Below, one piece after another: positions 1 to 64,000 of a DNA stretch of 64,000 nucleotides. The number at the start of each line of letters is the position of its first letter. Position 1 is the first letter of the stretch. The notes below the pieces were generated by a model. That model was given only the letters and a program-made list of their open reading frames with translations, was not told the DNA's origin and searched no databases. A program made the position numbers and the translations under genes. This DNA is from Blasia pusilla (Eukaryota): assembly GCA_050084515.1 (NCBI GenBank), contig CM114271.1:9176001-9240000 (forward strand), read 5' to 3'.

Positions 1-3000
1 AATATCCACCTTGGCCTTGTCGACCTCAATTCCTTGAGCCGACACTCTGTGTCCCAACAGAATTCCTTGTTTCATAGCAATATACGATTTGTCCGGATGA
101 AGGGACAACTGCACTTCGCGACAACGCGCGAGTGTTAACTCTAAATTTTTGAGATGTTCGGCCTCTGTGTTGAAGATACAAAAATCGTCCAAAAAGATTT
201 CCACAAACTTCCTCAGATACTCCTGGAAGATGGAGATCATCCTCCGTTGGAAAGTAGCTGGGGCATTGCATAACCCAAAAGGCATTACGCGATATGCGAA
301 AGTTCCCCAGTCCGTGGTGAACGTGGTGAGGGGACGATCCTTTTCTCGTATGGATACCTGGTTATAACCCGAGTATCCGTCCAAGAAAGTATAACGCTCG
401 TGCCCGGCAACTTTATCCAAAATACTGTAAGTGAAAGGTAGAGGATGGTGGTCTTTTAAGGTGGCAGCATTTAATTTCCGATAATCCTGGCACACTCGGA
501 TTTTCCCCGTTTTTTTTTTAGGTACAATTACGATGGGCGATACCCACTCGCTGCTTAACACAGGATAAATTATTCCTGCCTCAAGACGCTGGTCAATCTC
601 GTCCTTGACTAACAATGAGTACTTTGGATTTAGTCGATACTGTCGCATTCGCACCAGGACCGCCCCTTCTTTAAGATCAATTCGGTATTCACCATACCGT
701 GCGGGAATGCCTGTCATTTCATCCATGGAGTATGCAAAGACATCCAAATACTCAAACAGTAGTCTTTTATACTTCATAAGTGTGGTGGGAGACAAATCCG
801 CCGAAAGGCGTAGAGACTTTTGATCTGCAATAACGACCTAGACGTAGTCCTGCTCGTGAACCATGTTCTCTGTAAACTGGAAGGTACTATGACCTAGCTT
901 CTCTTCCTCTAGGGTCGACTTCGGCTTGGAGGGTACCGACTCCTCGTCTATTTCGTAACATTCTAAATAATACACGTGGGACGAGGACTTTGTAGCGGTT
1001 GTGTGGTCTTGATCTGACGTATAGCCGTTGTCAGTCGGTGGCGTCGCTCCTTGGGGTGGTTTTGATTTCCACGACAGCTTGATGAGCCGCTTCGAGACCT
1101 GATTTGGCGCTTGGAATGTGAAACGTCGCCTTTTCCAATCCGTAGTCACCCTCGCACCATACAGCCAGGGTCTTCCGATGAGCAAAGGATAGCCCGTGGT
1201 GGTCAGGGGCTACAAGACTAAGTAGTCCAACAGAAACAACACCCCCCCGAGCATGGTTGGAATTTGAGTGAGCTGTCCTAGGGGTCTCTTCCTAGATTGA
1301 TCCGCAAACCGCAGATACTTGTCTGTGGGCTCGTACACTATATACCCTAGTGCCCGAGCTGTTTGCTCCGTCATAATGTTAATTCCGCTCCTAGAATCAA
1401 TGGGGACCTTCTTAATGGTATGGCCCTCAATTTCCACCTCCACCTCTTGGGCTCCCAAGTCTTCTACTTCGATCCGGAACAGATCCACCATTGGCAGATG
1501 CTTTGCCGACTTCCTGGGTTTTTTCCGGCTTATTTTCCACTGCTGCAAAATTTTTCCGTACACAGGGTTATCCATTAGTAATTGTAGCAGGGTTATGTTG
1601 GCCGAGGTTGACGCCAAGTCCCTCAGTAAGTCGTAAGCTTCTAGGACCAGCGGTGATATCGCAATGGCTTGGACTGTCGGACTTGGTTTGGTCTTTGTCT
1701 TCTTTGGGTTCTGTTTCCCCTCTGGTTCCTGGTCCTCACGCACTTGAGCACGAACCTGGTCCTCTACATCTTGATGAAAGTACCTCGGATGACTTCGATC
1801 AAAGGCCAGGTCCACATCGCCTTTGAGGATGGCCTTCCCGGCACAGAAGGTGTTCACAGCTTTGGTCTTGGGCTCCCTAGCTTCACGCGAAGACGAAGTA
1901 CCCTTCCTTGCCCTTGGGATCCCCGCGGTCTGACTCTTCGACCTCGTGGTGACAGCCAGAACGGTTTCTTGGAACTCTTTGGGCCAGTCCGATGATTCCT
2001 CGTTGGCCCCTTCGGTCGAGTCTTCCTCACTGATAGTGACTCGCTTTGGTCTCGGGGACACTTCTTCTTCCACTCGGACAAGTTGTACATTTACGTCATT
2101 TTTAGGCTCTGGTTGAGCCGCTGGAGTGTTTACATATCTGACCAACAAACGCGGGACTTTGGGCTCCGGGTATTCCACGGCAGTGTACCCGCAACTACTA
2201 CACCAAATGTTGGGCCTCATCAGCCTGGGTCGTCTTCTGGGCCGCCAGATGTACCTTCAACTCAGCCATTTGTTTACTGAGCTCTTCCATGGCCGACTTG
2301 CTGGCCTTCCTTGCCGTCCCTCTCACGCGACTTTCCGACCGCTGGGGACGATGCTTGGTGATTGGTCGGGTTTTGTTCTGGTGCTTGGGGGAGTGATGAT
2401 GCATGCTTTTCCCTTTCCTTTTAGCTTTCAACTCCTGCTCCGAGTCCGAGGACTCGACGTATCCTCCGTAGAGGATTCCGTGTCGGTGGAGGACACTTCG
2501 TCTTCAGAAAAAGCACTAGTCTGCGACGCCCCTCGCCGTTGGTGACGCCGTCTTCGTGTTCTGCGGGACTTCTCTGAGGCTTCGTACGCCTCAGCGGAGG
2601 CTATGACTGCCTCCAAGGAATCAAGTTGGCCTCGCCGGCAGTACCGATCCATTTCTTTGGACAAGCCGGACACGAACCAATCTACCAATTGGGAGGTAGT
2701 CGTGTGCTCCAGCTTATTCACCAGGGTCTCCCCTTCTTTTTCCGTTTCAGGTCGCGAAGCTTCGTAAGAAGCCTGTCCTCGAACTCCAGGTCGCGCAACT
2801 CATGTAGGAAGGATTCCAAGACCATTTTCCAGGTTTCCGTGACGTCCGCTCCGAGACCTTCGTACCACTGGCTTGCTCGCTTCTTGAGCATGCCAGGAAA
2901 GACTCGTAACAAATCCTCCTCTACACCTTCCCCATTGGCTTTCGCGACATGGGTGAATTCAAGCACAAAGTTATCCACATCGTCTCGCCGTCCCCAGCAA

Positions 3001-3745
3001 AGGTGGGGTACCTTAGCAGAGTTTTTCTAGTATTGGCCATGGGAACCGCTCTCCTGCTGGCTTCCGGGCTTGATGCTCGAGAGGGAGGAGGTAACGGTTC
3101 GGCCCGAGGTGATCTGATCGGCTCCTCGCTCCCTGACTTCCCAAAGGGGTCCTAGGATGACTCTTCGTCCGACTACGAACTGGCAGGGGACGTAGTGGAG
3201 ACTTTGTCCTTGTCTTTCTTCTTGCTCCTCGGCTTCGGACGAGGACGAAGACCGGGAGACGACCCAGGCGGTCTCCAAGCCGGTTGCTCTTCCTGCTGCT
3301 TAGTGCGCCGATCGGATCGCTGCTCTCTCGAAGAGGGCCGAGAGCCTTCCATAAGTCTCTTGTGGGATTTGGCAACTTGCGTTCACCCCCACGGTTGCGA
3401 CAGGGTAAGGGTCCATGGAGGGAGGTTAACTACTTCTTCTTTCTACACCTACAAGAGTGTGCCTGGTGCTCCTAAGCTTCATGCCAGGTTTTCCTCCCAT
3501 AAACAGAAGTACCGGGTTTTCACCAAGTACAACTATCGTTCATGGGCGAAGCACCGTTTGGCGACTGGTTCTTTGACAATTCTAATTAGTTGGTCTATTT
3601 TCTCTAGCACCAATGCAGCAAATCTATTGTTGTCTTCAAGCATCCATTGTCTTAAGGGGATTGCTAGAGCTAGCAGATGGTCTTCAGTAAGAACTAGATT
3701 TTTGGGTCTTCCAGGGGCAAAGCTTCTTTCCCCGCCTCGGGGGTC
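1..3745 (-). mobile_element. Degenerate Ty3/Gypsy retrotransposon fragment (gag-PR-RT), family 1; runs off the window start and is truncated near 3745
   Basis: Minus strand shows gag-like ORFs (2198-2978), protease motif VPIDSRSGINIM (ORF 1210-2220) and frameshifted RT sequence (1-~760). It is collinear with the copy at 51.6-53.2 kb plus 57.1-60.9 kb. Confidence 0.9.
1210..2220 (-). pseudogene. Gag C-terminus and aspartic protease of Gypsy family 1, with an internal deletion between zinc knuckles
   Basis: WCSSCG runs directly into YTAVEYPEP, whereas the 59862-60900 copy has extra CCHC knuckles between them. The protease D-S-G motif reads DSRSG here. Confidence 0.8.
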
Positions 3746-46498: not shown

Positions 46499-47022
46499 GT
46501 GAGTATCTTTAACACTTTCGCAACTCGTCGGACTCCGACGAGTTGCTCGATTGATGAATGGGTTAGGTTTGTTTTTGCCGAAAGCAACTCGTCGGACTCC
46601 GACGGGTTGCTCGACTGCACGCTTTTTCGGATGTTTTTTTTAAGATTGCAACTCGTCGGACTCCGACGACTTGTTTGATTGAACATAGATTTAACTAGTT
46701 TTTGGCCCAAAGCAAACCGTCGGAGTCCGACGGGTTGCTCGACAGCCGCTTTGTGAGGATGTTTTTGAAGAATGCAATTCGTCGGACTCGACGAGTTGTT
46801 CGAAAGTGATTTCGCAGTTTAGAAGGTTTTTTCCCCAAAGCAACCCGTCGGAATCTGACGGGTTGATTTGGGGAAAAACAGCTTCGAGGCAAGCAACCCG
46901 TCGGAGTCCGACGGGTTGCTTTGGGGAAAAAACCTTCTAAACCTTCAATCACTCGAACAACTCGTCGGAGTCCGACGAGTTGCATTCTTCAAAAAACATC
47001 CTCACAAGGCGGCCTATCGAGC

Positions 47023-47560
47023 AGAAACTCCATAGATCGGTGCCACCATACCGCCGGGAGGCCATCGATGTCATCATTGTCAGGCATCCCCTTTTTGCAT
47101 TGGGTTCCACGTCAGAGTACACAAGGCTGGCTCCCACACTCATCTTGTGACTGATGCAATTCAAAAACACGTCAAGGAGGATGTGGCAAAGAAAGTGGCC
47201 GAGGTCTACAGAAACTCTCCGAGTTCAAAGCCCTGAGTGATCAAGTTAACAATAGCATCAAAAATTTGAGAACAACTCCTTGGAATCCTTGGATAGGGCG
47301 AGATCATGGCTGCCAAGGAGAAACAACTCTGGGAAAATCTCGCATTTCTTGCTGATCCTGAATGCTTCAGGAATTTGTTGTGTCAAATGCGGGTACTGGA
47401 TAAAAAGACGCCCGAAATGGATGCCATTGCTAGAATCAAGTCCAACTCCAGATTTCCATTCATTCAGAGATGGCAGTTCATGGGCCAGCGAGGCAAAGGA
47501 TCCAAGGCCTATGTCTTCAAAATGTCAACGACAAGTCTGTCGAGTGGCCTCGATCTTATA
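47023..47560 (+). pseudogene. Inverted continuation of the transposase interrupted at 40520
   Basis: EKQLWENLAFLADPECF...YVFKMSTTSLSSGLDLI ends at the TSD GATCTTATA (47552-47560). Confidence 0.8.
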
Positions 47561-50425
47561 GGGGTCTGGTATTCTGACAGGAGAGAGTAAGAGAGGAGAG
47601 GAAGAGAGGAAGAGAGGAGAGTCTCTCTTAAAAAAAAAGCCCAAATCCGCCTCCTCTCTTCAAAATTTTTTGACATATTTGAAAATTTTGTTTGCTTTAA
47701 AATTCAGGAAATCTTTAGAAGAGAGTATTTAGTGGTCCACATTTGGCCCTAAAAAAACCTCCTCTTTCCTGGGGGCTAGAAAAAAGGAGACATCATAAGA
47801 CCACCCTAAACATTTTTCCATCACTCTCCATGTGAGCCTAAGTTTCTTAACATTCCCTGTCTCGGTCAACAAAAAGCAGTGCCCTTGGTATTTTTGTTGG
47901 AGGACCACCGGATGGGTAGCTCTCTTTTGCAAGGATTTTTGCCTGCATCATGGCCTCCCCTAAATTGCCCCATAACCAACTTTCTGTCGGTTATGAATGG
48001 TGTCTGCTCAAGACCAACTTTCTGAAATGTGAACAAATCAGATCCTTAGGCTAAGAAACCGAGAAGCTGCACCCCTCCCAACCCGTAAGAAAGCTCACCA
48101 TAAGAAAGGAAAGATTTTTATAAGTGATTTTCTTCCACCCTGCACCCACGATGATCTAACGGGTTGGGAATCCGAAATGGAAATCCGACAGGTAGTAGGA
48201 ATCCTGCACATCTTAGACAAGAAAAGAAGCCTACAACTGGTTGGACGAATGAAGGGGAACGAGCCAAAAGTCAAGAAGCCCGCCACAATGCGCCAGAAGT
48301 TGGTCTCACCGGGATAGAGTCCAATCACTCAAGTAGTCAACATGTCGGAATCCGACAGGTTGCCTGGAAATGGTTAAAAAGTTGCAGTGGGCAAAAAGCA
48401 AAAAGTCGGAATCATACGGGTTGCAGAATTGTAATTTTGAGTAGCTAAAAGAACACAATCCACAAGTCCAAAAACATATTCCAGCAAACTTTTACAAACA
48501 CCATTATGGGTTGAAAAAATCTCGTCCTTTATTACCTCCGAAGGAACCTCGGAAATGGACATTTGACCTAGTCTATGATTTCTTCAGCCTCGTCATCTAC
48601 AAATTTACTCCTAACTCTCCTCAGTGACAGTACCAAAGGAATGTCCTGGGATTCAAGTGGCTCCTCTGGCCGATTGTAGACGGGGATCGAAAATGTTGGC
48701 AAATTCGAGAGCCTTGGCCCCCCCCTAGGTACACCAAAACGGTCCCATGTAACCTGTCTCGAGTCCCACCGCCTTCCTGGGCAGTATACCTTGTACGCTC
48801 TGCAATGTGACACCCATCCAGTATCAATATCTGCTCCGTCCCTGGTAATACCATTATGGCAACCGCACAGGTAGAAGGAATCCAACATGTCTGAGAGAAG
48901 AAAAGAAGCCTACGCCTGCCTTTACGAGTTGAGGGGAAGGTGCCAAGGGAAGAAGCTTGCCAGACTGCCTCTTAAGTTGGACCAACAGGGAAAGGGTCCG
49001 ATCAGGCAACGTGTCGGAATCAGACAGGTTTCCTGGAGGTGGTAAAAAGGGTGCAGTGGTGAAAAAGCGAAAAGTTGCAAGGAGGAGAAATCCGACGGGT
49101 TGCAGTGGTCATAAAGTGAAAGTTGCAAGCAGGAGAAATCCGACGGGTTGCAAAATAGAAGTCCGTGGAGTTCATAGACGATCACATTCGAAAAGACAAA
49201 AAATGATCAGCAAACATTTACAAGCACCACCATCGATCGAAAAAATCTTCTGCTTTATATCATCCAAAAAAGCTCGGAAGTGTACATTTGATCTATTCTA
49301 TGAAATCTTTTGCCTCATTATCAAAAAACTCCCTACTCCAAACGCTGCAGTCAAGTTGTGTCGTTGAGTTCTTTTAACTCACTCGTCATCGTCCGAGAGC
49401 TCTTGCAAAATCACTTTCGGCCTTGCCCTCCCGATTTTGGGAAATTGTTGGAAGTGACGATGGAGTCACTACCAAGGATGGCTCTGGAACCGGAGCTCTC
49501 GGCTTCGGTGGAGAGTTATACGCCCCAACGAGCCTTTCGTATTCTGCCTTTGCCTCCTTGCAAAGGTCAAACAGTTCCTGCCTTCCCTCAAGGCAGAGAA
49601 TGTTCTTGCCACTCTTCCAGGCGCCTTTGATACTTGCCCCTGAAAGTCCCACTAAGTCGAACACCAAGTCACCCGGCCTTGAGCAGAGCTCAATGAGCGT
49701 TTGCATCAGGGCTGGCGACTTTTCCCTTCCTCCCAGAAGTGGGGTACTGTCTTGCATGTAAATTCCCGGGGGAAATTGTACAAACTATCTAAGCTGTACC
49801 CATCTGAGCATGGATCCACAGGATCCTGGATCTTGAACACCTGGAAATTGTGCTTGGGCGAACGGGCGAAGAGCGTAGGAGTGGTCCATCAGTAAATCAA
49901 AGACGTTAGAAACAATGTCGAAACTAAAGAAGTCGCCTTGAGAACATTTTCAATAATCGACTTTGGATCAATTGCCGAGTCCGACGGGTTGTTTTGTCCC
50001 GGACCAACCCGTCGCCTTCCGACGGGTTGGTCAGGGACAAAACAACCCTTCGGGCTCCGTTGTTTTTGTCGTGAGCAACCCGTCGGAAGCGACGGGTTTT
50101 CGCCTAGAGTAGCCCATGCTCGCCGAGAGCAACCCGTCGCTATCAGACGAGTTGCATCCAAAAACCAAAATCAACTGGGAAAAACCAAAAGCAACTGCAA
50201 CCCGTCGGGTTCCGACGGGTTGCAAGTACACCGCGGTTTTCCCTGTATGTGGGAAAGATGCAACCCGTCGGAAACCGACGGGTTGCTCTCAGCCGAGCAT
50301 GGGCTGCTCTAAGCCAGAACCCGTCGCCTTCCGACGGGTTGCTCACGGACAAAAAAAACCCAGATTGACTCTCATTATACACATCATTAAAATATAATTG
50401 AAATTAGAGTACAGGAATTGAGCCT
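47561..50425 (-). mobile_element. Inverted right portion of the 40521 MULE copy (right terminus, last MTase-like exon, palindrome intron)
   Basis: GGGGTCTGGTATTCTGACAGG is the reverse complement of the right end. ORF 49386-49757 carries EKSPALMQTLIELCSRPGDLVFD. Confidence 0.85.
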
Positions 50426-53198
50426 TGTGATACCCACAATTTTGTACTTTGGAAGAAATGTATCTTTTTATTGAACAAAGACTCTTGTACATTATGGTTT
50501 GGATTATTATATGCAATTATGGAGAAGAACGAATAAGATTCAAGTGAATCACGAAGCTCCTAAGACAAGGCAGAGAGATGGAAGATCAAGGATTTGCCTT
50601 AGAGGAGAATCAAAAGCCGTAACGAAGTATAAAGGATCAACGCGAAGCTTAACGAAGCTTAACGAAGCTCTGTATACGAAGTACTTCGCTCTTAACCGAA
50701 GCACGAAGAGCGAAGCAAGAAGAGAATGAAGAATGAAGAACTTCGTCCTCCGGAAATTTAGCAATAAGTGGCTTCAAAGATGATTGTGATTCGAACCGGC
50801 ACATAGTTAAAACAATTAGACTAGGAAGGGGAGCGACCCTTTGTATCAAATTGGTAGTTAGAACAGTTTTGTACCACGGATTCACAGGGATCATAGGAAA
50901 AGGAACGCACACCATAGATCTAGGTAGTTACAGATATTGAAGAGACACCAACTTCATCAAGAACGATTCGGATCATAGAAACGCTCCTACTCTCGAGAAT
51001 ATTTAAGAAACAGGACAGAAGCTATCATTATCATTCGCTCATGAAGTCCTTTTGTCAGAGGAATGGTCCGAGCAAGAGAGTTGTACCCTCTCGAGCTTGT
51101 ATATACTTTGAAGTCTTCCAATTCTTGATGGAGTAGTAAAGCACTCATTCATTCATTCTGATGTGCGATGCTTATGTCTGAATATTCTTTTTGGGTCTGC
51201 TGAGTTAAGACGAATGAATCAGGCAAACCTTTCTCATCAATGGAATAATCAACATAGAGTTGTATGAAATCTTTTTGATAGAGAGTAACCTGCCCAGACG
51301 GATTAAGTTCCGAAAGTAGGAGAAGCCAACTTTATTCTTGAGGTCTCTGTGAGGTTTCGAGATGTCGAGAGAACAAATTTCCTGAGCGTACTTTAAATTC
51401 CACTCGAGAGAATTGAAGAAGAAAACATAGGTACTAAAAAGGATTGGAAGATGTTACTGGAATACTACATTTGAATTACATAATCAACCACACTACTTTT
51501 ACAACATAATAATCACTTTATACTCTCTTTTCATCCAACAATGATCCTCTTGGGGATCGAACTCTACAATTGTCTGTAAATAAGAAACACTTAGACATTA
51601 CATATAGTCGAAGACTTTTTTTTTGCCGCTGGGGATCATATCCTTGGCTGAGAAGGGAGAGAAAGACCCATGGGGAAGCCGGGAGCGGAGAAAGAAGCTT
51701 CGCCCCTAGACGACCCCACAATCTAGTTCTTACTAAAGACCATCGGCTAGCTCTAGCGACCCCCGTAAGACAATGTATGCTTGAAGATAACAATATATTT
51801 GCTGCATTGGTGCTAGAGAAGATAGACCAACTAATTAGAATGGTCAAAGAACCAGTCGCCGAACGGTGCTTCGCCCATGGACGATACTTGTACTTGGTGA
51901 AAACTCGGTACTTCTGTTTATGGGAGGAAAACCTGGCAGGAAGCATAGGAGCACCAAGCACCCTCCTGTAGATGTAAAAAGAATCAGTAGTTAACCTCCC
52001 TCCATGGACCCTTACCCTATCGCCACCGTGGGGGTGAACGCAAGTTGCCAAATCCCACAAGAGACTTATGGAAGGCTCTCGGCCCTCTTCGCAGGAGCAG
52101 CGAGCCGATCGGCGCAGTAAGCAAGAGGAACAGCAACCGGCTTGGAGACCGCCTGGTTCGTCTCCAAGTCTTCGTCCTCGTCCGAAGGCGAAGAGCAAGA
52201 AGAAAGAAAGGGACAAATTCTCCACTACGTCCCCTGCCAGTTCGCAATCGGACGAAGAGTCGTCCTGGGACCCCTTTGGGGAGTCAGGGAGCGAGGAGCC
52301 GATCAGAGCACCTCGGGCGGCACCTTTACCTCCTCCCTCTCGAGCATCAAGCCCGAGAGCCAGCAAAGAGTAGTTCCCATGGCCAACACTAGAAAAACTC
52401 TGCTAAGGTACCCCACCTTTGCTGGGGGATGACGAGACGATGTGGATAACTTTGTTCTTGAATTCACCCATGTCGCAAAAGCCAACGGGGAAGGGGCAGA
52501 GGAGGATTTGTTACGAGTCTTTTCAGGCCTGCTCAAGAAGCGAGCAAGCCAGTGGTACAAAGGTCTCGGAGCAGAAGTCACGGAAACCTGGAAAAGGGTC
52601 TTGGAATCCTTCCTACATGAGTTCCTCGACTTGGAGTTCGAGGACAGGCTTCTTACAAAGCTTCGCGACTTGAAGCGAAGAAAGAAGGAGACCCTCCGGG
52701 AATATACCCAAAGGTTTCGGAGCCTTGTGAATAAGCTGGAGCACACGACTACCTCCCAATTGGTAGATTGGTTCGTGTCCGGCTTGTCCAAAGAAATGGA
52801 TTGGTATTGCCGGAGAGGCCAACGGGATTCCCTGGAGGCGGTCATAGCCTCCGCTGAGGCGTACGAAGCCTCAGAAAAGTCCCGCCAAACACGAACACGG
52901 CGTCACCAATGGAGAGGGGCGTCGCAGACTAGTGCTTCGTCTGAAGACAAAGCGTCCTCCACAGACACGGAATCCTCTAGGGAGGATTCGTCTAAGTCCT
53001 CGGACTCGGAGCAGGAGGTAAAAGCTAAAAGGAAAGGGAAGAGCAGGCATCATCGCTCCCCCAAGCACTAGAACAAAACCCGACCAAGCACTAAGCGTCG
53101 TCCTCAGCGGTCGAAAAGTCCAGTGAGAGGGACGGCAAGGAAGGCCGGCAAGTCGGCCATGAAGGAACTCAGTAAACAAATGGCTGAGTTGAAGGTAC
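50426..53198 (+). mobile_element. gag: Gypsy family 1, 5' half (probable LTR from TGTGATACC, leader, gag from ~52068), inserted at a cargo-gene intron donor
   Basis: MULE homology stops abruptly at 50425. Gag ORF 52442-53071 is homologous to 2428-2978. The LTR 3' end (~51.5-51.6 kb) and PBS are not resolved. Confidence 0.8.
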
Positions 53199-53712
53199 TG
53201 TCACGTCTTTTAGGATAGATCGGTGGGATCTAATAGAGCGCCTTCATGAGTAGTGGAGGACACGCCCAGTAGGTCGAGGGTGACCTGCTGAGGCCCTTGG
53301 AAACCTGTGATAGCAGGTTTCCCCTTCGTTTCGGCTCATTTGGAGCCATATTGAGGAACTTACTATTTTAGGTAAGTACCATTTTGAGTATATGATCGAC
53401 TTACTATTTTTGGTAAGTGGCCCTTGACCTCCTACATCAGGTCAAGAGCCAAGGAGGTGACTTGGGAGAATAGGTTACCATGGAGAGAGCTTGGGAGAGG
53501 AGAGGGGTATACCTCAAGGAGAGAGAGCTTGAGAGTTCATTCTCTTTTTGTTGAACCTCTTGGCATGAGGCGGCGGAGCTATGGTACCTTGCCTTGTGAG
53601 TGTAACCCAAGCCTCTCATTAGGAGAGTGGGTTTGGTTTGACATGAGAGAGAGTGCACACCTTTGAGAGCTATGGTGTGAGATGGTGGAGAGAGAGATTA
53701 GATCTTACTTTA
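53199..53712 (+). repeat. Terminal repeat A1 (514 bp) of the PHD-Gypsy element
   Basis: Starts TGTCACG after GTAC. Near-identical reverse complement at 61083-61596. Confidence 0.9.
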
Positions 53713-55414
53713 CAATGAGAGAGTGAGAGAGCTTCATGGGGGAGCTCGCTGGTCACTCGCTGTTTTTGCAGGTTGGCGACCGTGTTCCCCGTTCAGCGGC
53801 TCATGGGAGTGCTCACCGGAGCAAGGGCTGCTTTCATTACTCTTTGCATTTGCCGATTTTTCGTGTGGAAGAGTGGCGCGCGGAAGCGCTGCCCAATTTC
53901 TGATAGGGATTGAGTATAGGGGCGGGTTGCCCCATGCTGGTGCTCTCGGGAGCACCATGTAGCTTGCTGATATGTACTTTTACAGATGTTACATTTTCGT
54001 TGGGAGAAATCAGCGCGGGAGCGCTGGCAAATTTTGTGTAGGAGAAAGAGACATTGGGCTTTACGACAGTCCCCGTCAGTTTTTACTAAAATGTTCGATT
54101 CTAAATATTTTTTGATGGTAGCGTAGATCGTGAAGCTGTGCACGCTGTGCAACAAATAGTGCACAATTTGGAGTTGCGAGCAAAAAGTTATGGGCAATCT
54201 TGTAAAGCTGCCATTGCTAGGCAATTTTTAGGGTTAAATCGTGCAAACCCTAAATCAACCGCCACACCGGCGGCGGCCGTCGCCATCATAGTCACCGTCA
54301 ACGGTCGATGGTCAACCGTCACCATCATCGGTCGGCCGTCACCATCAGCGGTCAACCGTCACTGTCAAGGGTCCACCGTCCATTGTCCACCCTGTGGGTG
54401 CTATTGCCGCCATTACGGAGTGGAGGGTCTTCCATGACGTTCGTTGATTCCTTGACTTGCGTCGCCACCACGTACTTTGTTTTGGCTGCCACCGTCATTG
54501 CTGTTTCTTCATCAACCAGTGAAGGTAGATGACCTCCGGTTATGGTGTTTGAGTTTTGATTTCATGCTGCTATGTTGTGATTGGTAGCCGCTCGACGACG
54601 ATCGAGTATCGTGCCGTGACGCCCGTAGCCGCAACTCGCCGCCGATTGCCGCGCCGTGCCGCTCATGGCCGCACCGCACCATCTCGATCACGGAGATGCA
54701 CCGTCATTGTGGAGCAGAGTGTGGGATTATTATTGATTGAGGAGGGTATGCCGCTGAGTGCCGCATCCCACCATCGAGGGCCGTGCCGTTCGTAGCCGTT
54801 CCGTGCCGCCTGCAACGCCGCACCGTTCCGCTGGGACCGCACTGTCTATCGAGGAGTTTTGAGCAGCATCAGTATGGGAGGAGTATGACTTGCTGATTGG
54901 AGGAGTTGTCTCCACGATCGAGTTGGGGTCGAGATTTGCAGTTGCTGAGGAGCGACATCGACATGTGTTCAGGTTACCCATTCTGGTCCTTTACCCTGCA
55001 CGTGTGAGGGATTCTGGGATTTATTTGGGGATATTGGGTGTGTGGATGCTGAGAGCATCATTTATGTATGTGGTTTAGGGGACATAGACCTGTGTGGGAT
55101 GTCCGGAGTTGAGGGTAGGTTGTCGATGAGATGATAGCCTCGTCGATTTGCCGCACCACGCCACGTGTTGCCGCACGTTACACGTCTCGGGGAGAGAGAG
55201 TGTAGATCGAGTGCCGCATGTTTGGGATGAGTGATTGAGGGATTCCTCACGAGGTTCAGAGTGATCGGGTGAGAGGGGCACGAGGGTCATCACGGAGTCT
55301 GTTCGGGACTTTGAGAGGCGAGGTGGTGAACCCGAGAGTAGCTCTAGAGGTTTTACGCGGAGTGGCGCGAGGTTTCGAGGGTCTCCACGTGAGGGACCAC
55401 CTCGACCTCCTTCT

Positions 55415-56990
55415 GTGTCATCGTCAGACGAGGGGGAGGGTGTAGAGGAGTTTGTGAGCACATCGCCACACATTGTGAGTGGTCCTACCAGTTGGGCGTA
55501 CGAGATGGACGACCGGGGTAGAGGACCGCGTAGGTTTTCAGGTGCAGTAGGCACGATTGAGTTGCACGATTTTATAGCAGAGTTTAGGAGTTGGTGCGAC
55601 TCCCAGCGGGCCAGGAACTCTAGAGAGTTCAACCCGTTTACAGCATGGAACGGTATGTTCCAGCATTTAGAGGGGGCGCCCATGGACGATTACCATGAGT
55701 TCTCTCAGAGATATGCATGTGAGATCGAGGCGTGGAGGCTCTACTATGACCCACATTATGTGTCATGGACGGAGCCGTTCCCAGATGAGGAGGAGGAGTC
55801 GAGAGAGGCTCGCCTCTTCCACTAGTGACGTTTTAGGAGGGGTCACTCGCACGGGAGCAGTTGCACCGTCTAGTCGGGTTCGTCCCAGGTTCAACCTTGT
55901 GGTTGAGTTCTTTGCTGAGTTGAGGGCGAGCTACCAAGGGGTACGGACGGAGAAGTTGCGGAGCATCCACAACTTCCAGAGGCGCTCGGGTGAGAGTTTG
56001 CGTGAGGCTTACACTCGCTTGCGCCGGTTGATCAACGTCACTCAGGGGGTGACAGAGGCTCAGGCTATCCAGTCATGGTATGCGATGCTGGACCGGACCC
56101 TGCGGATACGGGTGCGGGAGGGGGTGCTTCTTATGAACACCTCCCCTATGTTGAGAGATGTTTTTAGGACCGTCGAGAACATTGAGCGCAACATGGCGGA
56201 GGAGAGCGTAGCCACCATGGGTTCTGGCGAGATCGATCCACGATTGTCCGCACCACCTGCGGCAAAGAACGTGACTCGAGATAGGTTGACTGTGGCACCA
56301 CGAGCTCAGGGAGGATACCGAGAGGCCGTGCCACAGAGACTTGCGCCTTCATATGCGGCTCAGCAGCAGCCGCCTACTATTACTTGTTGGTCATGTGGTG
56401 GAGCCCATCATCAGCGCGATTGCACTCGTCGGGACATGGACGTGTGCCTCAGCATGGAGGAGGAGATGGTGTTGCACCAAGAGGTTATCAATGTGACTAT
56501 TGTCAGAGGTATGGTCATACACGCGCCAGGTGTTTTAGTTTACATCATGAGTTACGTCTGGACCGAGGGCCAGAGAGGGCACCAGAGCGAGTAGCCGGTC
56601 CGGGTGGGCCTAGAGATCGTGCTCCAGGTGGTCCCGTTGGGGGACGAGGAGCTGGAGTTGCCCGACACGGTGGTGGAGCTGCCCGTGGAGGAGGTAGAGT
56701 ACCACCACCTAGACGCGCCGAGGGAGATGCCGGACGTGAGGCTGGGATGGCTACTCAGATACAACAGCTACAGGAGCAGATTGCCGCTATGGCATTGAGG
56801 TTACCCGATGCCGGATCCGTGGCATCGACATCATATGGAGGAGCCAGAGATCTGGAGGATCCTGGATGGATGTGCGGGGTTGCCCAGATGGAGGACGCCG
56901 CAGTTGTGACGTGTGGAGCAGCCGCAGAGTTGGATCCACAGCGAGGGGAAGCCAGTAGACAGACTAGGCTTCCTCAATCTTTCACGTTGT
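55415..56990 (+). pseudogene. gag: gag of the PHD-Gypsy element (frameshifted)
   Basis: PRRFSG; FQRRSGESLREAYTRL (gag QxxxES motif); knuckles CWSCGGAHHQRDC and CDYCQRYGHTRARC. Confidence 0.8.
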
Positions 56991-56991
56991 C

Positions 56992-57114
56992 CGAAGCGGT
57001 AGCCACGCAGAAAGATGACAGTGAAGCAGTGGCTAAGTTTTTATATGAGATGATTATCACGCGTATGGCTGTCCGTTGGAACTAGTAAGTGACCGGGGTA
57101 CGCACTTCCTGAAC
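56992..57114 (+). pseudogene. Locally flipped integrase-core fragment of Gypsy family 1
   Basis: EAVATQKDDSEAVAKFLYEMIITR-(frameshift)-GCPLELVSDRGTHFLN continues the minus-strand ...ATDYCTKMVE that ends at ~57138. Confidence 0.75.
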
Positions 57115-57137
57115 CTAAACGCACTTCCCGAATCTGA

Positions 57138-60100
57138 CTTCGACCATCTTAGTACAATAGTCAGTGGCGATAAGAATATACTTCCACCGGGTTTGGCGAG
57201 TGGCCGGGGAGATAGGGCCCACGAAGTCAATGCCCCATTTTTCAAAAGGAGCTAGGGGCATGATGGGGACCAAAGGCCACCGCGTAGTCGCCGTGGGTCG
57301 ACCTGCCCTTTGACAGGCATCACAACTCCGAATAAAATTACCTACGTCTTTGTACATAGTCGGCCATCAATAACGTGCGGCCAAAATTTTCTTAACGGTA
57401 TTTTTTACCGCATAGTGTCCACCGGAATCAGCCATATGCAGGGCTCTGATGACCTGGGGAACCTCTTCAACTTCCAAGCATCTTTGATGCTCTTCATCAG
57501 CACCTAATTTGAATAAGACCCCTTGACAGATGTCATATGGGCCTATCCGATGTAAAAAAACTGCGCGTTTTTCCGCTGTCATCGGGGCAGGAAGTCGCAA
57601 AGTCATTAGAAACCGCAGAATATCCTCATAAAAAGACTGGCTCAACCGTTCTTCTGTTATCTGGAACAGATCTTCATTGGGAAAGGTATCATCGACAGAT
57701 TGGGTGAGGTCCGCACTTGTCATCCTCAACCGGGAAAGAAAATCGGCATTGGTATGCACCTTGCCGGCACGGGTCACAACATCAAATGTGAATTCTTGTA
57801 GCAACAAGATCCACCGTGCAATGCGTCCTGACAGGTCGGCTTTCACCATTAAGGGTCTGAGTGCAAAATGATCCACATGAAAGACAAATTCGTACCCTAA
57901 TAAATAGTGTCGGAACTTTTTACACGAGAAGACCATGCCTAACGCCTCTCATTCGGTAGTTGTATATTTCTGCTCTGCCGCCGATAGTTGTCGGCCGGCG
58001 TAGTAAATCAGAAAATCATGTTTGTGCTCATCCAATTGGCTGAGCACTACTCCAATGGCAAATGAGGATGTGTCCACATATACGTGGAAGGGTTTGGTCC
58101 AATCGGGGGACCGAAGTACAGGAGCTTTTTGCAATGCGTCTTTTAAGGTGTCGAATGCCACTTGGCACGCTGGTGTCCACTCCCATTCAGTGGTCTTCTT
58201 AAGTAATGCAGTAAGAGCGCTCGCTTTTACCGCGTAATCTTTAATAAACCGTCGATAGTACCCGACATGTCCCAAGAATCCTCTCAATTCCCGGAGATTA
58301 GTAGGTGGTTCCAATGCGACGATAATATCCACCTTGGCCTTGTCGACCTCAATTCCTTGCGCCGACACTCGGTGTCCCAGCAGAATTCCTTGTTTCATAG
58401 CGATATACGATTTGTCCGGATGAAGGGACAAATGCACTTCGCAACAGCGTGCGAGTGTTAACTCTAACTTTTCCAGATGTTCGGCCTCTGTGTTGAAGAT
58501 ACAAAAATCGTCCAAAAAGATTTCCACTAACTTCCGCAGATACTCCTGGAAGATGGAGATCATCATCCGTTGGAAAGTAGCTGGGGCATTGCACAACCCA
58601 AAAGGCATTACGCGATATGAGAAAGTTCCCCAATCCGTAGTGAATGTTGTGAAGGGACGATCCTTTTCTCGTATGGATACCTGGTTGTACCCCGAATATC
58701 CGTCCAAGAAAGTATAACGCTTGTGCCCGGCCACTTTATCCAAAATACTGTCAGTGAAAGGTAGAGGATGGTGGTCTTTTAAGGTGGCAGCATTTAATTT
58801 CCGATAGTCCTGGCACACTCGGATTTTGCCCGTTTGTTTTTTAGGTCCAATTACGATGGGCGACACCCACTCGCTGCTTAACACCGGATAGATTATTCCT
58901 GCCTCGAGACGCTGATCGATCTCGTCCTTGACTAACAATGAGTACTTTGGATTCAGTCGATATTGTCGCATTCGCACCGGGACCGCCCCTTCTTTAAGAT
59001 CAATTCGGTGTTCACCATATTGTGCGGGAATGCCTGTCATTACATCCATGGAGTATGCAAAGACATCCAACTACTCAAACAGTAGTCTTTTATACTTTAT
59101 AAGTGTGGTGGGAGACAAATCCGCCCGACAGCAAAGAGAGACTTTGATCTGCAATAACGACACGGGCGTAGTCCCGCTCCCGAACCATGTTCTTCAGAAC
59201 TGGAAGTCGCTATGACCTAGCTTCTCTTCCTCTCGAGTCAACCTTGGCTTGGAGGGTACCGACTCCTCGTCTATTTCATAACATTCTAAATAATACACCT
59301 GGGACGAGGACTCCGTAGCCGTGGTGTTGTCTTGATCTGACGTATAGCCGTCGTCAGTCGGTGGCGTCCCTCCTTGGGGTGGTCGAGATTTCCACGACAG
59401 CTTGATGAGCCGCTTCGAGACCTGATTCGGCGCCTAGAATGTGAAACGTCGCCTTTTCCTATCTGTAGTCACCCTCGCGCCATATAGCCAGGGTCTTCCG
59501 ATGAGCAAAGGATAGCCCGTCGCAGTCAGGGGCTGCAAGACTAAGTAGTCCAACAGAAACAACACCCCCCGAGCATGGTCGGAATTTGCGTGAGCTGTCC
59601 GAGGGGTCTCTTCCGGGATTGATCCGCAAACCGCAAATACTTGTCTGTGGGCTCGTACACCGTGTACCCTAGGGCCCGAGCTGTTTGCTCCGTCATAATA
59701 TTGATTCCGTTTCCGGAATCAATGGGGACCTTCTTAATAGTATGGCCCTCAATTTCCACCTCCATTTCTGGGGCTCCCAAGTCTTCTACTTCGATACGGA
59801 ACAAATCCACCATTGGCAGATGCTTCGCCGACTTCCTAGGTCTTTTGCGGCTGATTTTCCACTACTGCAAGATTTTTCCGTATACTGGGTTATCCATTAG
59901 CAACTGTAGCAGGGTTATGTTGGCCGGGGTTGACGCCAAGTCCCTCAGTAAATCGTAAGCTTCTAGGACCAGCGGTGATGTCGCCATGGCTTGGACTGTC
60001 GTACTTGGTTTGGCCTTTGTCTTCTCTGGGGTCTGTTTCCCCTCTGGTTCCTGGTCCTCACGAACTTGACCACGAACCTGGTCCTCTACATCCTGATGGA

Positions 60101-60937
60101 AGTATTTTGGATGACTTCGGTCAAAGGCCGGGTCCACATCGCCTTTGAGGATGGCCTTCCCGGCACGTAAGGTGTTCACAGCTTTGTTCTTGGGCTCCCT
60201 AGCTTCGCGCGAAGACGAAGCACCCTTCTTTACCTTTGGGATCCCCGCGGTCTGGCTCTTCGACCTCGTGGTGACCGCCAACACAGTTTCTTGGAACTCT
60301 TTGGGCCAGTCCGATGATTCCTCGTTGGCCCCTTCGGTCGAGTCTTCCTCGATGGTGACTCGCTTTGGTCTCGGGGACACTACTTCTTCCACCCAGACCA
60401 GTTGTACATTTACATCGTTTTTGGGCTCTGGTTGAGCCGCTGGAGTGTTTACATATCTGACCAACAAATGCGGGACCTTGGGCTCCGGGCATTCCACGGC
60501 AGTGTGCCCGCCCTTCTTGCAGTTCCCGCATAAGGGATTGAGTCCCACTGGTCGCTTTGGGTTTGGGCAATTATTGGCCCAAAGGTCTGCTGCGCCGCAG
60601 TTATAACAACAATTTTGTTTGATGGGTGGCGTGAAGGCCGCCACACCCATAATCTGTCTCAGGGGTCTCTGTTCTCCGTATTCCGGAGGTACATACCGCG
60701 TGATCCAGCTTCTCCCCGGGTTTGGGGGGGCACCGCTTGGACGGCATAGCACCCTTCCCACTGTTCCGGTTCATACCATCCTTCTTCAGTAGGGGCCTCT
60801 TCATGGATCCACCGTAGATCCCTATGAGTAGGGCATTCTTGTACAGTATGCCCCTGGGTTCCACAACTACAACACCAAATGTTGGGCCTCATCAGCCCGG
60901 GTCGTCTTCTGGGGTCCTTCTGGGCCGCCAGATGTAC
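57138..60937 (-). mobile_element. pol: Gypsy family 1, 3' half (gag knuckles-PR-RT-RH-INT N-terminus), inverted
   Basis: ORF 57949-59070 with FLDGYSGYNQ, MPFGLCNAPATFQR, IFLDDFCI and YVDTS; RNase H FHVDHFAL; integrase GGHY...CDACQR, WGIDFVGP. Confidence 0.93.
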
Positions 60938-61733
60938 TGTCGTGCGCATACACATCGTTACACAACATACATCGCTGTCACCGAACACACACACAAACAC
61001 GCATGATCCCATGCTAACTCATGGCATCCAAACAAAGAGACAAGAAGAACCAAAATATCTCCAATCGCCCCCATCGTAACCCTAAAGTAAGATCTAATCT
61101 CTCTCTCCACCATCTCACACCATAGCTCTCAAAAGTGTGCACTCTCTCTCATGTCAAACCAAACCCACTCTCCTAATGAGAGGCTTGGGTTACACTCACA
61201 AGGCAAGGTACCATAGCTCCGCCGCCTCATGCCAAGAGGTTCAACAAAAAGAGAATGAACTCTCAAGCTCTCTCTCCTTGAGGTATACCCCTCTCCTCTC
61301 CCAAGCTCTCTCCATGGTAACCTATTCTCCCAAGTCACCTCCTTGGCTCTTGACCTGATGTAGGAGGTCAAGGGCCACTTACCAAAAATAGTAAGTCGAT
61401 CGTATACTCAAAATGGTACTTACCTAAAATAGTAAGTTCCTCAATATGGCTCCAAATGAGCCGAAACGAAGGGAAAACCTGCTATCTCAGGTTTCCAAGG
61501 GCCTCAGCAGGTCACCCTCGACCTACTAGGCGTTTCCTCCACTACTCATGAAGGCGCTCTATTAGATCCCACCGATCTATCCTAAAAGACGTGACAGTTG
61601 TCGTGCGCATACACATCGCTACACAACATACATCGTTGTCACCGAACACACACACAAACACGCATGATCCCATGCTAACTCATGGCATCCAAAAAATGAG
61701 ACAAGAAGAACCAAAATATCTCCAATCGCCCCC
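60938..61733 (-). repeat. 3' terminal repeats of the PHD-Gypsy element: B1 (61599-61733), A2 (61083-61596), B2 (60938-61072)
   Basis: The 135-bp B occurs twice around A2. On the minus strand the junction reads GCACGACA-AC-TGTCACG, and B2 ends GCACGACA followed by GTAC. Confidence 0.88.
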
Positions 61734-61906
61734 CTAGCTGGTGGTTAGGTCCCTCTAACTCCAGATAGCCATCTATCCCTACCTACCATGACATACATCT
61801 CTCGGACGCTAAGAGCAAGAAGGCCGGGTGCTCATGTGGCCCCATCGTTAGTCGCCTCCTTGTCATCCATGTCATAGACACAAGTCGGAATGTAGAGCTA
61901 CCTTCT

Positions 61907-63330
61907 CTATGTACATCTGGGACACATCCATCGTCCCTGAGGAACCCTAGTGAGAGATGGCGTCAAACATGCCATATGCCATCCTCTCGAACACCCATCA
62001 CAGACTAGCATCGTGGCCGCACCACGGGCAGAACCACACAACATACAACGCAAACCTGCATGAACTACTACTAAGCTCGGATCTACTGTACCATCAATGT
62101 TAGGAAGGTGACATGGCGCACAATTACGCACATGGTCCTTCCATACCATACCATCGCGTCCCTCCAGCAAGAGAACACCCGATGGAAAAATGTCACGTAC
62201 TCTCAGGATAGTGCGCCCTGCAGTCACATCCAACATCGTCGGTGCCGTCTGCTGCAAATAGACATAATCTCCCTGATGAAACCTCTGGATAGTTGGTCGA
62301 TAACCACCACCTCGAATAGTCGCATACCTCAACGTATCCCGATGCTGTGCAATCGCCAAGTTTTCGAACGCCATGGGCATCACTCTCAGAAATAACTCAG
62401 CCCTCAGAATATATCTTCGCAATCGAACTGAATCCCTTGACGTATCGCCGATAGAAGTTCGCCAATCCCATGAATGCGCAAACACGGCTCACATCTGTAG
62501 GGCGTGGAATGCGTGAGATAGCCTCTACCTTCGTCTGCTGAACACCAAGGCCCCCTGGGTATATCGTATGACCCAAGTACTCAATCTGGTCGTAGAAGAA
62601 CTTGCACTTGCCTGGATGTAGCTTCAACCCATGTAATTGCAATCGTCGAAACACCTCCTCTAGATGTTGCTCATGCTCCTCAACCGTGGCGCTAAAGACT
62701 ACGATGTCATCAATATAACACCTAGCAAAATCCAGACCAGCCAAGATCCTATCCATGACCCCTCGAAACTCAGACGGGCGTTCTTTAACCCAAATGGTAA
62801 GAACCGCCACTTTGGTACAAACAATCCTTCCGTGAGGATCGATGCCCCAAAATGCCGTCTTTCGCCTTTTGTCTTCCAATCGATAGGCAGGCGGTTGATG
62901 GTATCCTCGCAAATCAATGAATTGAAGACCTTTGCATGACCAATCGCATCAAAGATCTCCTCAGGGGTGGGCATGGCATACCTATCGGACTTCGTGCGCG
63001 ATTGATAGGTCGGTAATCCCCACACATCCGCCTATCCGTCCAGTTGCCATGCACATCCTTCTTGGCGGGCATGACAGTGGCAGATGCATACTCCCCATGC
63101 GACATCTCTACTAGTCCTGCTCCGACCAAGTCTTGGCTCCTACTCTGAATCAAAGCCCTCTCCATATCACTGTACCTGTAGGGTCGTCGGAAGATCGGCA
63201 TATCACTCGACAACTCAATGCGGATCCCCGGTCCCTTCAGCGTACCCAAATCCTCCATGCTAAACGCGCAGCGGCTCCTATAACTCGAGGAATCGATGTA
63301 TTCGGCGCCGCTCTCCTCCTGTCAACTTAG
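61907..63330 (-). pseudogene. pol: pol of the PHD-Gypsy element: RT joined by deletion to the integrase C-terminus and a PHD finger
   Basis: RMCGDYRPIN, LPFGLKNA, CYIDDIVVFS; jump near 62415 removes RNase H and the integrase core; RFHQGDYVYL; CMLC...LVCDGCSRGWHMACL...WMCPRC (C4HC3). Confidence 0.88.
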
Positions 63331-64000
63331 GGCCCATATCTGGCTCCCAAGTCTCCATCGTGACTACGGTAGGACTCTCCGGCGTGGGTATCGGTGGTTG
63401 CTATGGTGCAACCCCGTCTGGAACAACAACACTCGACCACTCTCCTACAGCCAACTGCAAACTCTGATCTCCTCCACGTGCAGTGCCCGAAACCACGCTC
63501 GATGTTGTGGCTATCATCTCCTTGCGTACCTTCAAAACATCCCAAGAAGTCCAAGGGTGTCTCTCCCGATCTCCCTTGGTGCGTAGATCTCCTCGGGTCT
63601 CGCCCCCAGCCACTGCCTCCACCGTCTCGGTAGGCATGGGGCTCACCAACGCAACCGTTGTGATCTGTCGCGATCTCATACGACGCCGCTCACCACTCCC
63701 AGGCGAGGATCCATGTCAAGCAGTTCAGGTCCATCGCCTAACCCAAGACATGGCGTCGTGATGCCTCTGACACTGATGGTACTGCCGTCACTCCTGTGGG
63801 AAATCCCATCGCTTGCTCTCTCTTGTCGGCGTTGGGCTCCACCAACCGCTGAACCTGGTCATCCCAAAACCAAGCCAGGACCGGCCTCCTTGTATGCATA
63901 GGAAGCGGAAAACTCACAACGTGGGCAAGGCGCCCGCGCCTGGCTTACCTCACTGTTGACTACGGTCGGTGGTGGTCGATCATCGTGCCTCACCGTCTGT

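Follow-up and report, generated by a model that had tools for sequence, protein, structure and literature searches.

A 64,000-nucleotide stretch of Blasia pusilla DNA (the window; GenBank assembly GCA_050084515.1, contig CM114271.1, positions 9,176,001 to 9,240,000 of the forward strand) contains, at positions 53,199 to 61,733, a Gypsy-like retrotransposon with split direct repeats, A...B-A-B, in place of two long terminal repeats (LTRs). Here A and B denote the two parts of the repeat (A1, B1, A2 and B2 in the order of the element), j the palindrome GACA-NN-TGTC at which B1 meets A2, and A/B the junction between A2 and B2. We concluded that the family is probably a self-priming Ty3/Gypsy element that performs ordinary reverse transcription and integrates at an internal site. 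Genomic copies are most likely circular permutations that start and end at the palindrome, cut by the integrase. The evidence leans slightly toward a broader statement, namely that a green-lineage Gypsy clade extending from algae to this host (the term "green lineage" is drawn from the named relatives) moved the integrase attachment site into the LTR and made end joining and the cut at the internal palindrome obligatory.

Permuted repeats across the family

The A...B-A-B layout was real and family-wide. The genome searched (G000) measured 390 Mb, and exact motifs, whose counts are lower bounds that depend on motif length, occurred as 2283 A starts, 1257 A ends with a primer-binding site (PBS), 894 polypurine tracts (PPTs) running into a B start, and 313 internal j. 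We fetched 29 other loci by similarity to the B-j-A-B cassette, which selected them on the 3' end; B-j-A-B was present in all 29 (with B2 shortened in one), and 26/29 had an upstream A, not preceded by B, about 10.3 kb from the cassette. For a second sample we used 60 A starts, of which 59 were collected in sequence along contig C1 and one was picked. These included 25 in which flanking DNA passed directly into A and the leader, 17 internal B-j-A, 9 solo A/B and 7 truncated or interrupted copies; the remaining two were a partial B before A/B and a B-j-A with leader that followed internal sequence (L097). Flanking DNA joined to B-j-A and leader was seen in none of the 60 A starts (0/26 5' ends), nor did B precede A in any of 30 loci picked by their 5' end (two are the studied locus, and some overlap with the cassette set). 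No ordinary two-LTR copy was found in the cassette, A-start or 5'-end samples, and the two complete terminal LTRs that characterize Ty3/Gypsy elements were present at 0/26 and 0/30 5' ends. Of 30 PPT sites, 26 ran on into A and 4 stopped after B.

Target site duplications (TSDs) were scored in 25 copies (c10, c19, c22 and c29 were left out): an exact 4-bp duplication was found in 18, one with a single mismatch in 6, and none in 1, and the 18 exact TSDs represented 17 different 4-bp words. The preliminary description of the locus had proposed split repeats with GTAC at both ends and no B before or after A1. Coordinates, repeat identity and empty sites agreed with the former, the latter was confirmed at the locus, and A...BAB with a 4-bp TSD proved general (29/29 cassettes, 26/29 upstream A, 18/25 exact TSDs). 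Solo A/B copies had exact TSDs in 4/8 cases and a single mismatch in 3/8. The A-internal-B forms (4/30 PPT sites, three of them independent) had position-matched TSDs in two cases, interval sequence not included. Both forms fit double cutting as well as ordinary recombination and carry no weight as evidence. Some copies (L017, L021, L025, L030 and copy c18, at L048) lay inside or beside older copies of the same family.

The window locus itself does contain an unusual inverted duplication (10 kb) and has lost 1.6 kb, as a one-off deletion, a tandem product or an assembly artefact of an ordinary two-LTR element might. Such an origin can nevertheless hardly be credited: there are 313 exact j genome-wide, no ordinary two-LTR copy appeared in any sample, and the same layout recurs in independently assembled relatives, which refutes it for the family.

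Primer sites and the extent of the true LTR

A 16-nt PBS lay directly behind A1, and its exact complement, the self-primer, was located within A itself, at A 338-353, with a TATA-like motif about 30 nt ahead of it. The complement was perfect over at least 15 nt in 11/23 copies, whereas 500 shuffles reached 9 nt at most, and in the relative L181, which belongs to a related family of different sequence, a 17-nt complement was still present. A PPT immediately preceded B1. The element thus has a PBS behind its 5' repeat and a PPT before its 3' LTR, as Ty3/Gypsy elements do. Because the repeat regenerated by reverse transcriptase (RT) runs from PPT to PBS in standard LTR biochemistry, the true LTR is B-j-A. 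Regarding a tRNA primer, no TGG-type PBS followed A1 in 24 copies, with no tRNA set scanned. The earlier remark that no obvious tRNA PBS follows A1 overlooked a primer site: a self-priming PBS follows A1 in other copies, and it had been missed because the window copy lost part of it.

In three runs from a single study, RNA reads covered 28/30 bins of the family and came mostly from one strand, which is the sense strand if the library was of the usual stranded type. At L062:437, RNA reads crossed the B end and went on into another A start, which resembles that of the metagenome family described below; these reads suggest that a further subfamily with the same junction is expressed.

Coding content and RT phylogeny

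One natural frame of 746 aa, in another copy, matched the profiles RVT_1, RT_RNaseH, H2C2 and rve. The Pol order was thus RT, ribonuclease H (RNase H), integrase with a DDE core, as in Ty3/Gypsy elements. All three catalytic residues (D, D, E) were readable in 12/29 copies, the first D in 26/29 and the E in 27/29. The integrase was encoded between RNase H and a PHD finger that follows it, and no chromodomain was matched. A C5 methyltransferase lay ahead of the RT, with PF00145 above cut-off in 2/4 upstream frames and in a third copy, and tblastn matches in 22/29 copies; its motifs may be Dnmt3-like. No aspartic protease was matched by Pfam in the broken frames, while some relatives have PF13650/PF13975, and a Retrotrans_gag match in another copy was weak (E 0.007, below cut-off). 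No tyrosine recombinase was matched when 54 frames of 95 aa or longer, from one complete copy and the greater part of another, were searched.

On the window minus strand, RT motifs preceded the PHD finger, so that the PHD finger noted behind the RT in this tail was recovered. About 1.6 kb, comprising most of RNase H and the integrase core, was deleted from the window copy (at 62420/62421), and the integrase type was thus unreadable from the window alone. DDE integration, which had been deduced from the ends and TSD, was borne out by the rve match and D, D, E of other copies together with the 54 recombinase-free frames.

In an RT-RNase H tree of 33 rows, which were picked by similarity to the query and included no REXdb references, a 27-row clade (support 100/98) joined the family and its homologues, apart from five other Gypsy-type rows and the element in which the window copy is inserted (the host element). 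Same-domain homologues included proteins from Klebsormidium, Closterium, Haematococcus and Chlamydomonas. The Klebsormidium nitens protein P0020 (methyltransferase, RT, RNase H and integrase; 47% identical) fell inside the clade on a long branch and is not labelled KnitGypsy; Chara P0104, one Tf2-type row, fell outside it. The chlorophyte proteins P0015, P0048, P0081 and P0088 had a PHD finger and no methyltransferase match.

A fixed and a variable junction

The internal junction j was always GACA-NN-TGTC, with a spacer of AC in 25, GC in 16, GT in 10, AT in 6 and another dinucleotide in 7 of 64 sites; this pattern is what C-to-T decay of a symmetric GC would be expected to give. The integrated copies ended in one half of j on each side, the 2-nt spacer being lost, and if both strands of j were cut after CA in staggered fashion, the resulting ends would be identical to those of retroviral 3' processing.

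The A/B junction behaved differently. Among 63 such junctions, the U5 end met the B start precisely and bluntly, with no spacer, in 35, and 14 had one additional nucleotide; 3 kept 3, 4 or all 16 nt of the PBS, 4 kept PPT sequence, and 7 were of other kinds. The commonest junction has a 1-nt overlap, with the U5 end and the left end sharing one A. Junction type was mixed within a subfamily defined by shared variants, and private variants common to B1 and B2 were found in 4 copies. Because A/B varies, sits at the ends set by PBS and PPT and keeps remnants of both, it appears to be the join of the RT-defined ends. In one case (window 61073-61086, minus strand) the insertion at A/B resembles a short repeat of telomere type, TTTAGGG/TTAGGG, attached to the A end; it looks as though a free A end had been lengthened ahead of joining. 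Retention of PBS or PPT sequence at cDNA ends and circle junctions has been described for Tf1 and HIV-1 (PMC11042837).

The B1/A2 junction, which reads GCACGACA-AC-TGTCACG on the minus strand as first reported, had been likened to a joined-ends circle junction. Such a newly made junction is ruled out: B1/A2 is palindromic, fixed between copies while A2/B2 varies, and conserved in distant relatives. Likewise, the 10-bp spacer reported between A2 and B2 exists in the window copy and is peculiar to it, since the commonest A2/B2 junction is spacerless (35/63).

The RNA might instead run from A1 into B2, and the B1-A2 sequence might be the template from which both ends are restored on a circle, in a replication mode like that of Ngaro or PAT but with a DDE integrase in place of the tyrosine recombinase. 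This mode, which comes close to what the preliminary description had in mind, would give the same repeat order as in split-direct-repeat elements (PMC5890265) and would assign the fixed j the role of template. We regard it as quite improbable. A/B would then be inherited through the RNA, yet it varies independently of subfamily; it coincides precisely with the ends that the PBS and PPT define and keeps sequence left over from each; and the RT groups with Gypsy-type proteins.

Proposed integration at the internal palindrome

From the observed ends, TSDs, primer sites and junction spectrum, we infer the cDNA, its joining and its cleavage as follows. The RNA would start within A1 and stop shortly before the end of A2. 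Its first 16 nt would pair with the PBS behind A1, while the PPT before B1 would prime the plus strand, and the product of these observed primer sites would be a linear cDNA, B-j-A-internal-B-j-A. The two RT-defined ends would be joined into A/B, usually bluntly and sometimes with primer remnants, either as a 2-LTR circle or by repair after insertion. The DDE integrase would cut j of the 5' LTR, staggered, after CA on both strands, leaving 2-nt overhangs like those of processed retroviral ends, and the new ends would be inserted with a 4-bp duplication to give A-internal-B-j-A/B. The single intact j, in the 3' LTR, would template both new LTRs, so that the next round would be fully provided for. 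HIV-1 integrase cleaves a palindromic junction internally (PMC1905944). An unusual replication mode had been suspected from the window, and the family-wide permuted layout, the primer sites and the A/B junction spectrum support it.

A finished 2-LTR circle has two identical j, and the product of cutting the 3' j, A/B-j-A-internal-B, should thus be equally common. Symmetric cutting of either j was rejected, as this mirror form was not found at the 26 or the 30 sampled 5' ends. Furthermore, on C1 up to 26.3 Mb, comparison by eye showed no exact PBS about 505 nt downstream of any of the 23 exact j, and the only B-j-A with leader was that of L097, where internal sequence precedes. One possibility is that the 5' j is double-stranded and bound first.

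The one-sided use of the 5' j would also be accounted for without any internal cleavage, if RT jumped from the U5 end to the left end, copied B and stopped at j; the linear DNA would then already end at j, and the integrase would trim 2 nt. This scheme fits the precise commonest junction with its 1-nt overlap. We consider it unlikely, because it needs a signal that stops synthesis exactly at j on both strands and the removal of B from the left end, and because the PPT remnants, the full PBS and the untemplated-looking insertion resemble ligated ends, as in HIV circles (PMC11042837).

Several observations weigh against integration at an internal site by a self-priming element. The mirror product was absent from the 26 and the 30 5' ends, and a finished symmetric circle is thus insufficient as the intermediate. 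The self-primer match was shorter than 15 nt in 12/23 copies, and in three other relatives it was 10 nt, 10 nt and none, that is, 10 nt or less in 3/4 tested. RNA pile-ups stood 16-25 nt before the end of A2 and comprised only 5 molecules each, and the RNA reads, possibly from another species, were mostly 90-95% alike. Frames were broken in every copy examined, the middle Asp was readable in only 15/29 copies, and the symmetric GC spacer was present in only 16/64 j sites. B1 and B2 diverged by 2.08% within elements and 2.50% between them, a small advantage. Neither extrachromosomal DNA nor enzyme activity was observed.

Metagenome relatives

We identified 79 metagenome loci with about 65-80% amino-acid identity to the family and examined 59, of which 37 had a PPT and enough downstream sequence to be scored. 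B-j-A/B was found in 16 of these 37, and in most others the B start was not followed by a second B; certain records represent the same locus more than once, and short-read collapse is possible. The three loci with both ends present (L158, L181 and L231) all had 4-bp TSDs. A was unalignable to the studied family and B alignable only near j, while j itself was kept. The RT-defined ends of these relatives share no TG...CA, unlike the conserved j. Among L157-L234, forms without a second B made up about half of the 37 and seemed much commoner than in G000 (4/30), an excess that could be biology or short-read collapse.

The window locus

The minus-strand copy was contiguous past the window edge and had its own A1 at G000:C1:9245595, 5.6 kb outside the window, which gives an element of 8.66 kb. 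GTAC also flanks this true A1 and matches the 3'-end flank; it is a true TSD, as 119 exact uninterrupted host sites carry a single GTAC, one of them at window 2244-2263. The two A copies in the window (53199-53712, plus strand; 61084-61596, minus strand) were 99% alike, and B1 and B2 were 97% alike.

Window 47021-56998 (plus strand) is, as assembled, an inverted duplicate, 96.8-97.0% identical to sequence 1.8-11.7 kb right of the window (window-numbered 65790-75700; G000:C1:9241790-9251700), with 215 substitutions in two blocks. The arms of this 10-kb inverted duplication are separated by an 8.8-kb spacer. They diverge by 2.3%, above the A1/A2 divergence (about 1.5%), with many 1-bp gaps, and transitions made up 66% of substitutions as against 68% in controls. 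An inversion, which the preliminary description had undone to reconstruct the element, is ruled out, since the A1 of the minus-strand copy lies elsewhere, beyond the window, and the plus-strand half is the duplicate. The features of the locus are as follows.

47021-56998 (+): inverted duplicate (host gag start, element A1, leader, gag), from DNA alignment and shared flank
53195-53198 (+): GTAC TSD on the duplicated segment, from flank match and empty sites
53199-53711 (+): repeat A, duplicate of the true A1, with the downstream U3 part, R and U5; starts at the right half of the palindrome
53504-53513 (+): TATA-like motif, putative promoter, about 30 nt before the self-primer; similar motif at the same spacing in relatives
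53536-53551 (+): self-primer, the predicted RNA 5' end (A 338-353), complementary to the PBS of intact copies
53712-53721 (+): remnant of the self-priming PBS, partly deleted in the window copy
55265-56998 (+): gag-like region with broken frames, ending at the duplication breakpoint
56999-60933 (-): host element (another Gypsy-type family), remainder of gag, then pol
60934-60937 (-): GTAC TSD, element 3' end
60938-61065 (-): B2, the upstream U3 part of the 5' LTR, displaced to the 3' end; stops at the left half of the palindrome
61066-61083 (-): A2/B2 junction, putative joined cDNA ends, with 7 nt of PPT and a 10-nt insertion kept
61084-61596 (-): A2, the part of the complete 3' LTR that follows B1; contains a copy of the self-primer (61244-61259)
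61593-61602: palindrome j, GACA-NN-TGTC, with the 2-nt spacer at 61597-61598; putative integrase attachment and cleavage site
61599-61726 (-): B1, first part of the complete 3' LTR
61727-61735 (-): polypurine tract directly before B1
61907-62420 (-): integrase C-terminal region and PHD finger
62421-64000 (-): RT (frameshifted) and linker or end of the methyltransferase region, from DNA alignment to other copies; the element runs on to G000:C1:9245595

The studied copy sits inside the gag of the host Gypsy-type element, and the pol at 57115-60770 belongs to that element, not to the studied family. The host family, with at least 119 copies genome-wide and about 35% RT-RNase H identity to the studied family, occurs twice in the window (1-3735, minus strand, and 52433-53198 / 56999-60933). 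The U3 part of A contains two 20-nt imperfect palindromes 41 nt apart (53358-53377 and 53399-53418), mirrored in A2, which are possible protein-binding sites, and the element leader contains three or four 20-nt tandem repeats (54310-54380). At 50002-50360, clustered short palindromic repeats and nested inverted repeats, with related sequence elsewhere in the window, possibly represent a DNA transposon end or a foldback element.

Comparison with known systems and implications

PAT and Ngaro elements combine split direct repeats with a tyrosine recombinase, and we know of no PAT, Ngaro or DIRS elements with a DDE-type target duplication. In contrast, the studied family combines a PBS and a PPT with a DDE integrase and 4-bp TSDs of random sequence, and no recombinase was found. 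What it shares with PAT, Ngaro and SymbioDIRS-Dnmt3 is the A...B-A-B order and an internal junction that mirrors the joined ends (SymbioDIRS-Dnmt3: PMC5890265). This likeness to split-direct-repeat tyrosine-recombinase elements looks convergent.

Among the closest described systems is KnitGypsy-Dnmt3, which de Mendoza et al. (2018) reported from Klebsormidium nitens and in which Gypsy domains and a C5 methyltransferase are combined in Pol (PMC5890265). The legend of Fig. 4c in that paper describes its repeats as arranged as in DIRS, which the Fig. 1 legend gives as A-coding-B-A-B, and the studied family resembles it in both the methyltransferase upstream of the RT and this repeat order (PMC5890265). 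P0020 may be the KnitGypsy-Dnmt3 element itself. The layout is thus already in print, in a figure legend, with no mechanism given there; the main-text passages of that paper mention no TSD, PBS, PPT, palindrome or mechanism, and "PHD" is absent from its text (PMC5890265). The studied family differs from KnitGypsy-Dnmt3 in being far more abundant (2283 exact A starts) and in having a PHD finger. Within the literature searched, the name KnitGypsy was found in that paper only (PMC5890265), and a preprint (10.64898/2026.05.21.726589) merely mentions "Gypsy-DNMT3". No account of the ends or mechanism of this layout was found in titles and abstracts, a search outside which most subscription journals and the supplements of PMC5890265 lay.

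Tf1/sushi elements and the plant Tcn1 chromoviruses share self-priming in place of a tRNA primer and a DDE integrase (PMC6317226), and Tf1 cDNA ends can likewise keep PBS or PPT sequence (PMC11042837). Their copies, however, end in a full LTR on either side and encode a chromodomain, whereas the studied family has a PHD finger, a methyltransferase and permuted ends. It is a self-priming Gypsy element in its reverse transcription, lacks the two terminal LTRs of that group and is not a tyrosine-recombinase element. To our knowledge, all LTR elements and retroviruses integrate linear cDNA through primer-fixed ends, and 2-LTR circles are mostly dead ends. An exception has been argued for HIV (PMC4372172). 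At HIV-1 and foamy virus 2-LTR circle junctions, the DDE integrase cuts an internal palindrome with two CA and produces integrable ends (PMC1905944, PMC4372172); there the palindrome arises from ligated cDNA ends, and this side route restores the normal map. In the studied family the palindrome is encoded in the LTR, and its cleavage, deduced from sequence, is apparently the sole route and permutes the genome.

LTR finders that require twin TG...CA repeats and a TSD (as in PMC6317226) would mis-delimit or miss about a thousand or more copies of this family (894 exact PPT and B starts, 1257 A ends with PBS). The family offers exact coordinates for the proposed internal cleavage by a DDE integrase. 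If the proposed mechanism is true, the primers set one pair of ends and the integrase uses another, so that the two jobs are separated, and the family would be a successful natural DDE retroelement integrating via a circle-type intermediate that is a mere side path in retroviruses. It also suggests a route by which split direct repeats may arise from ordinary LTRs.

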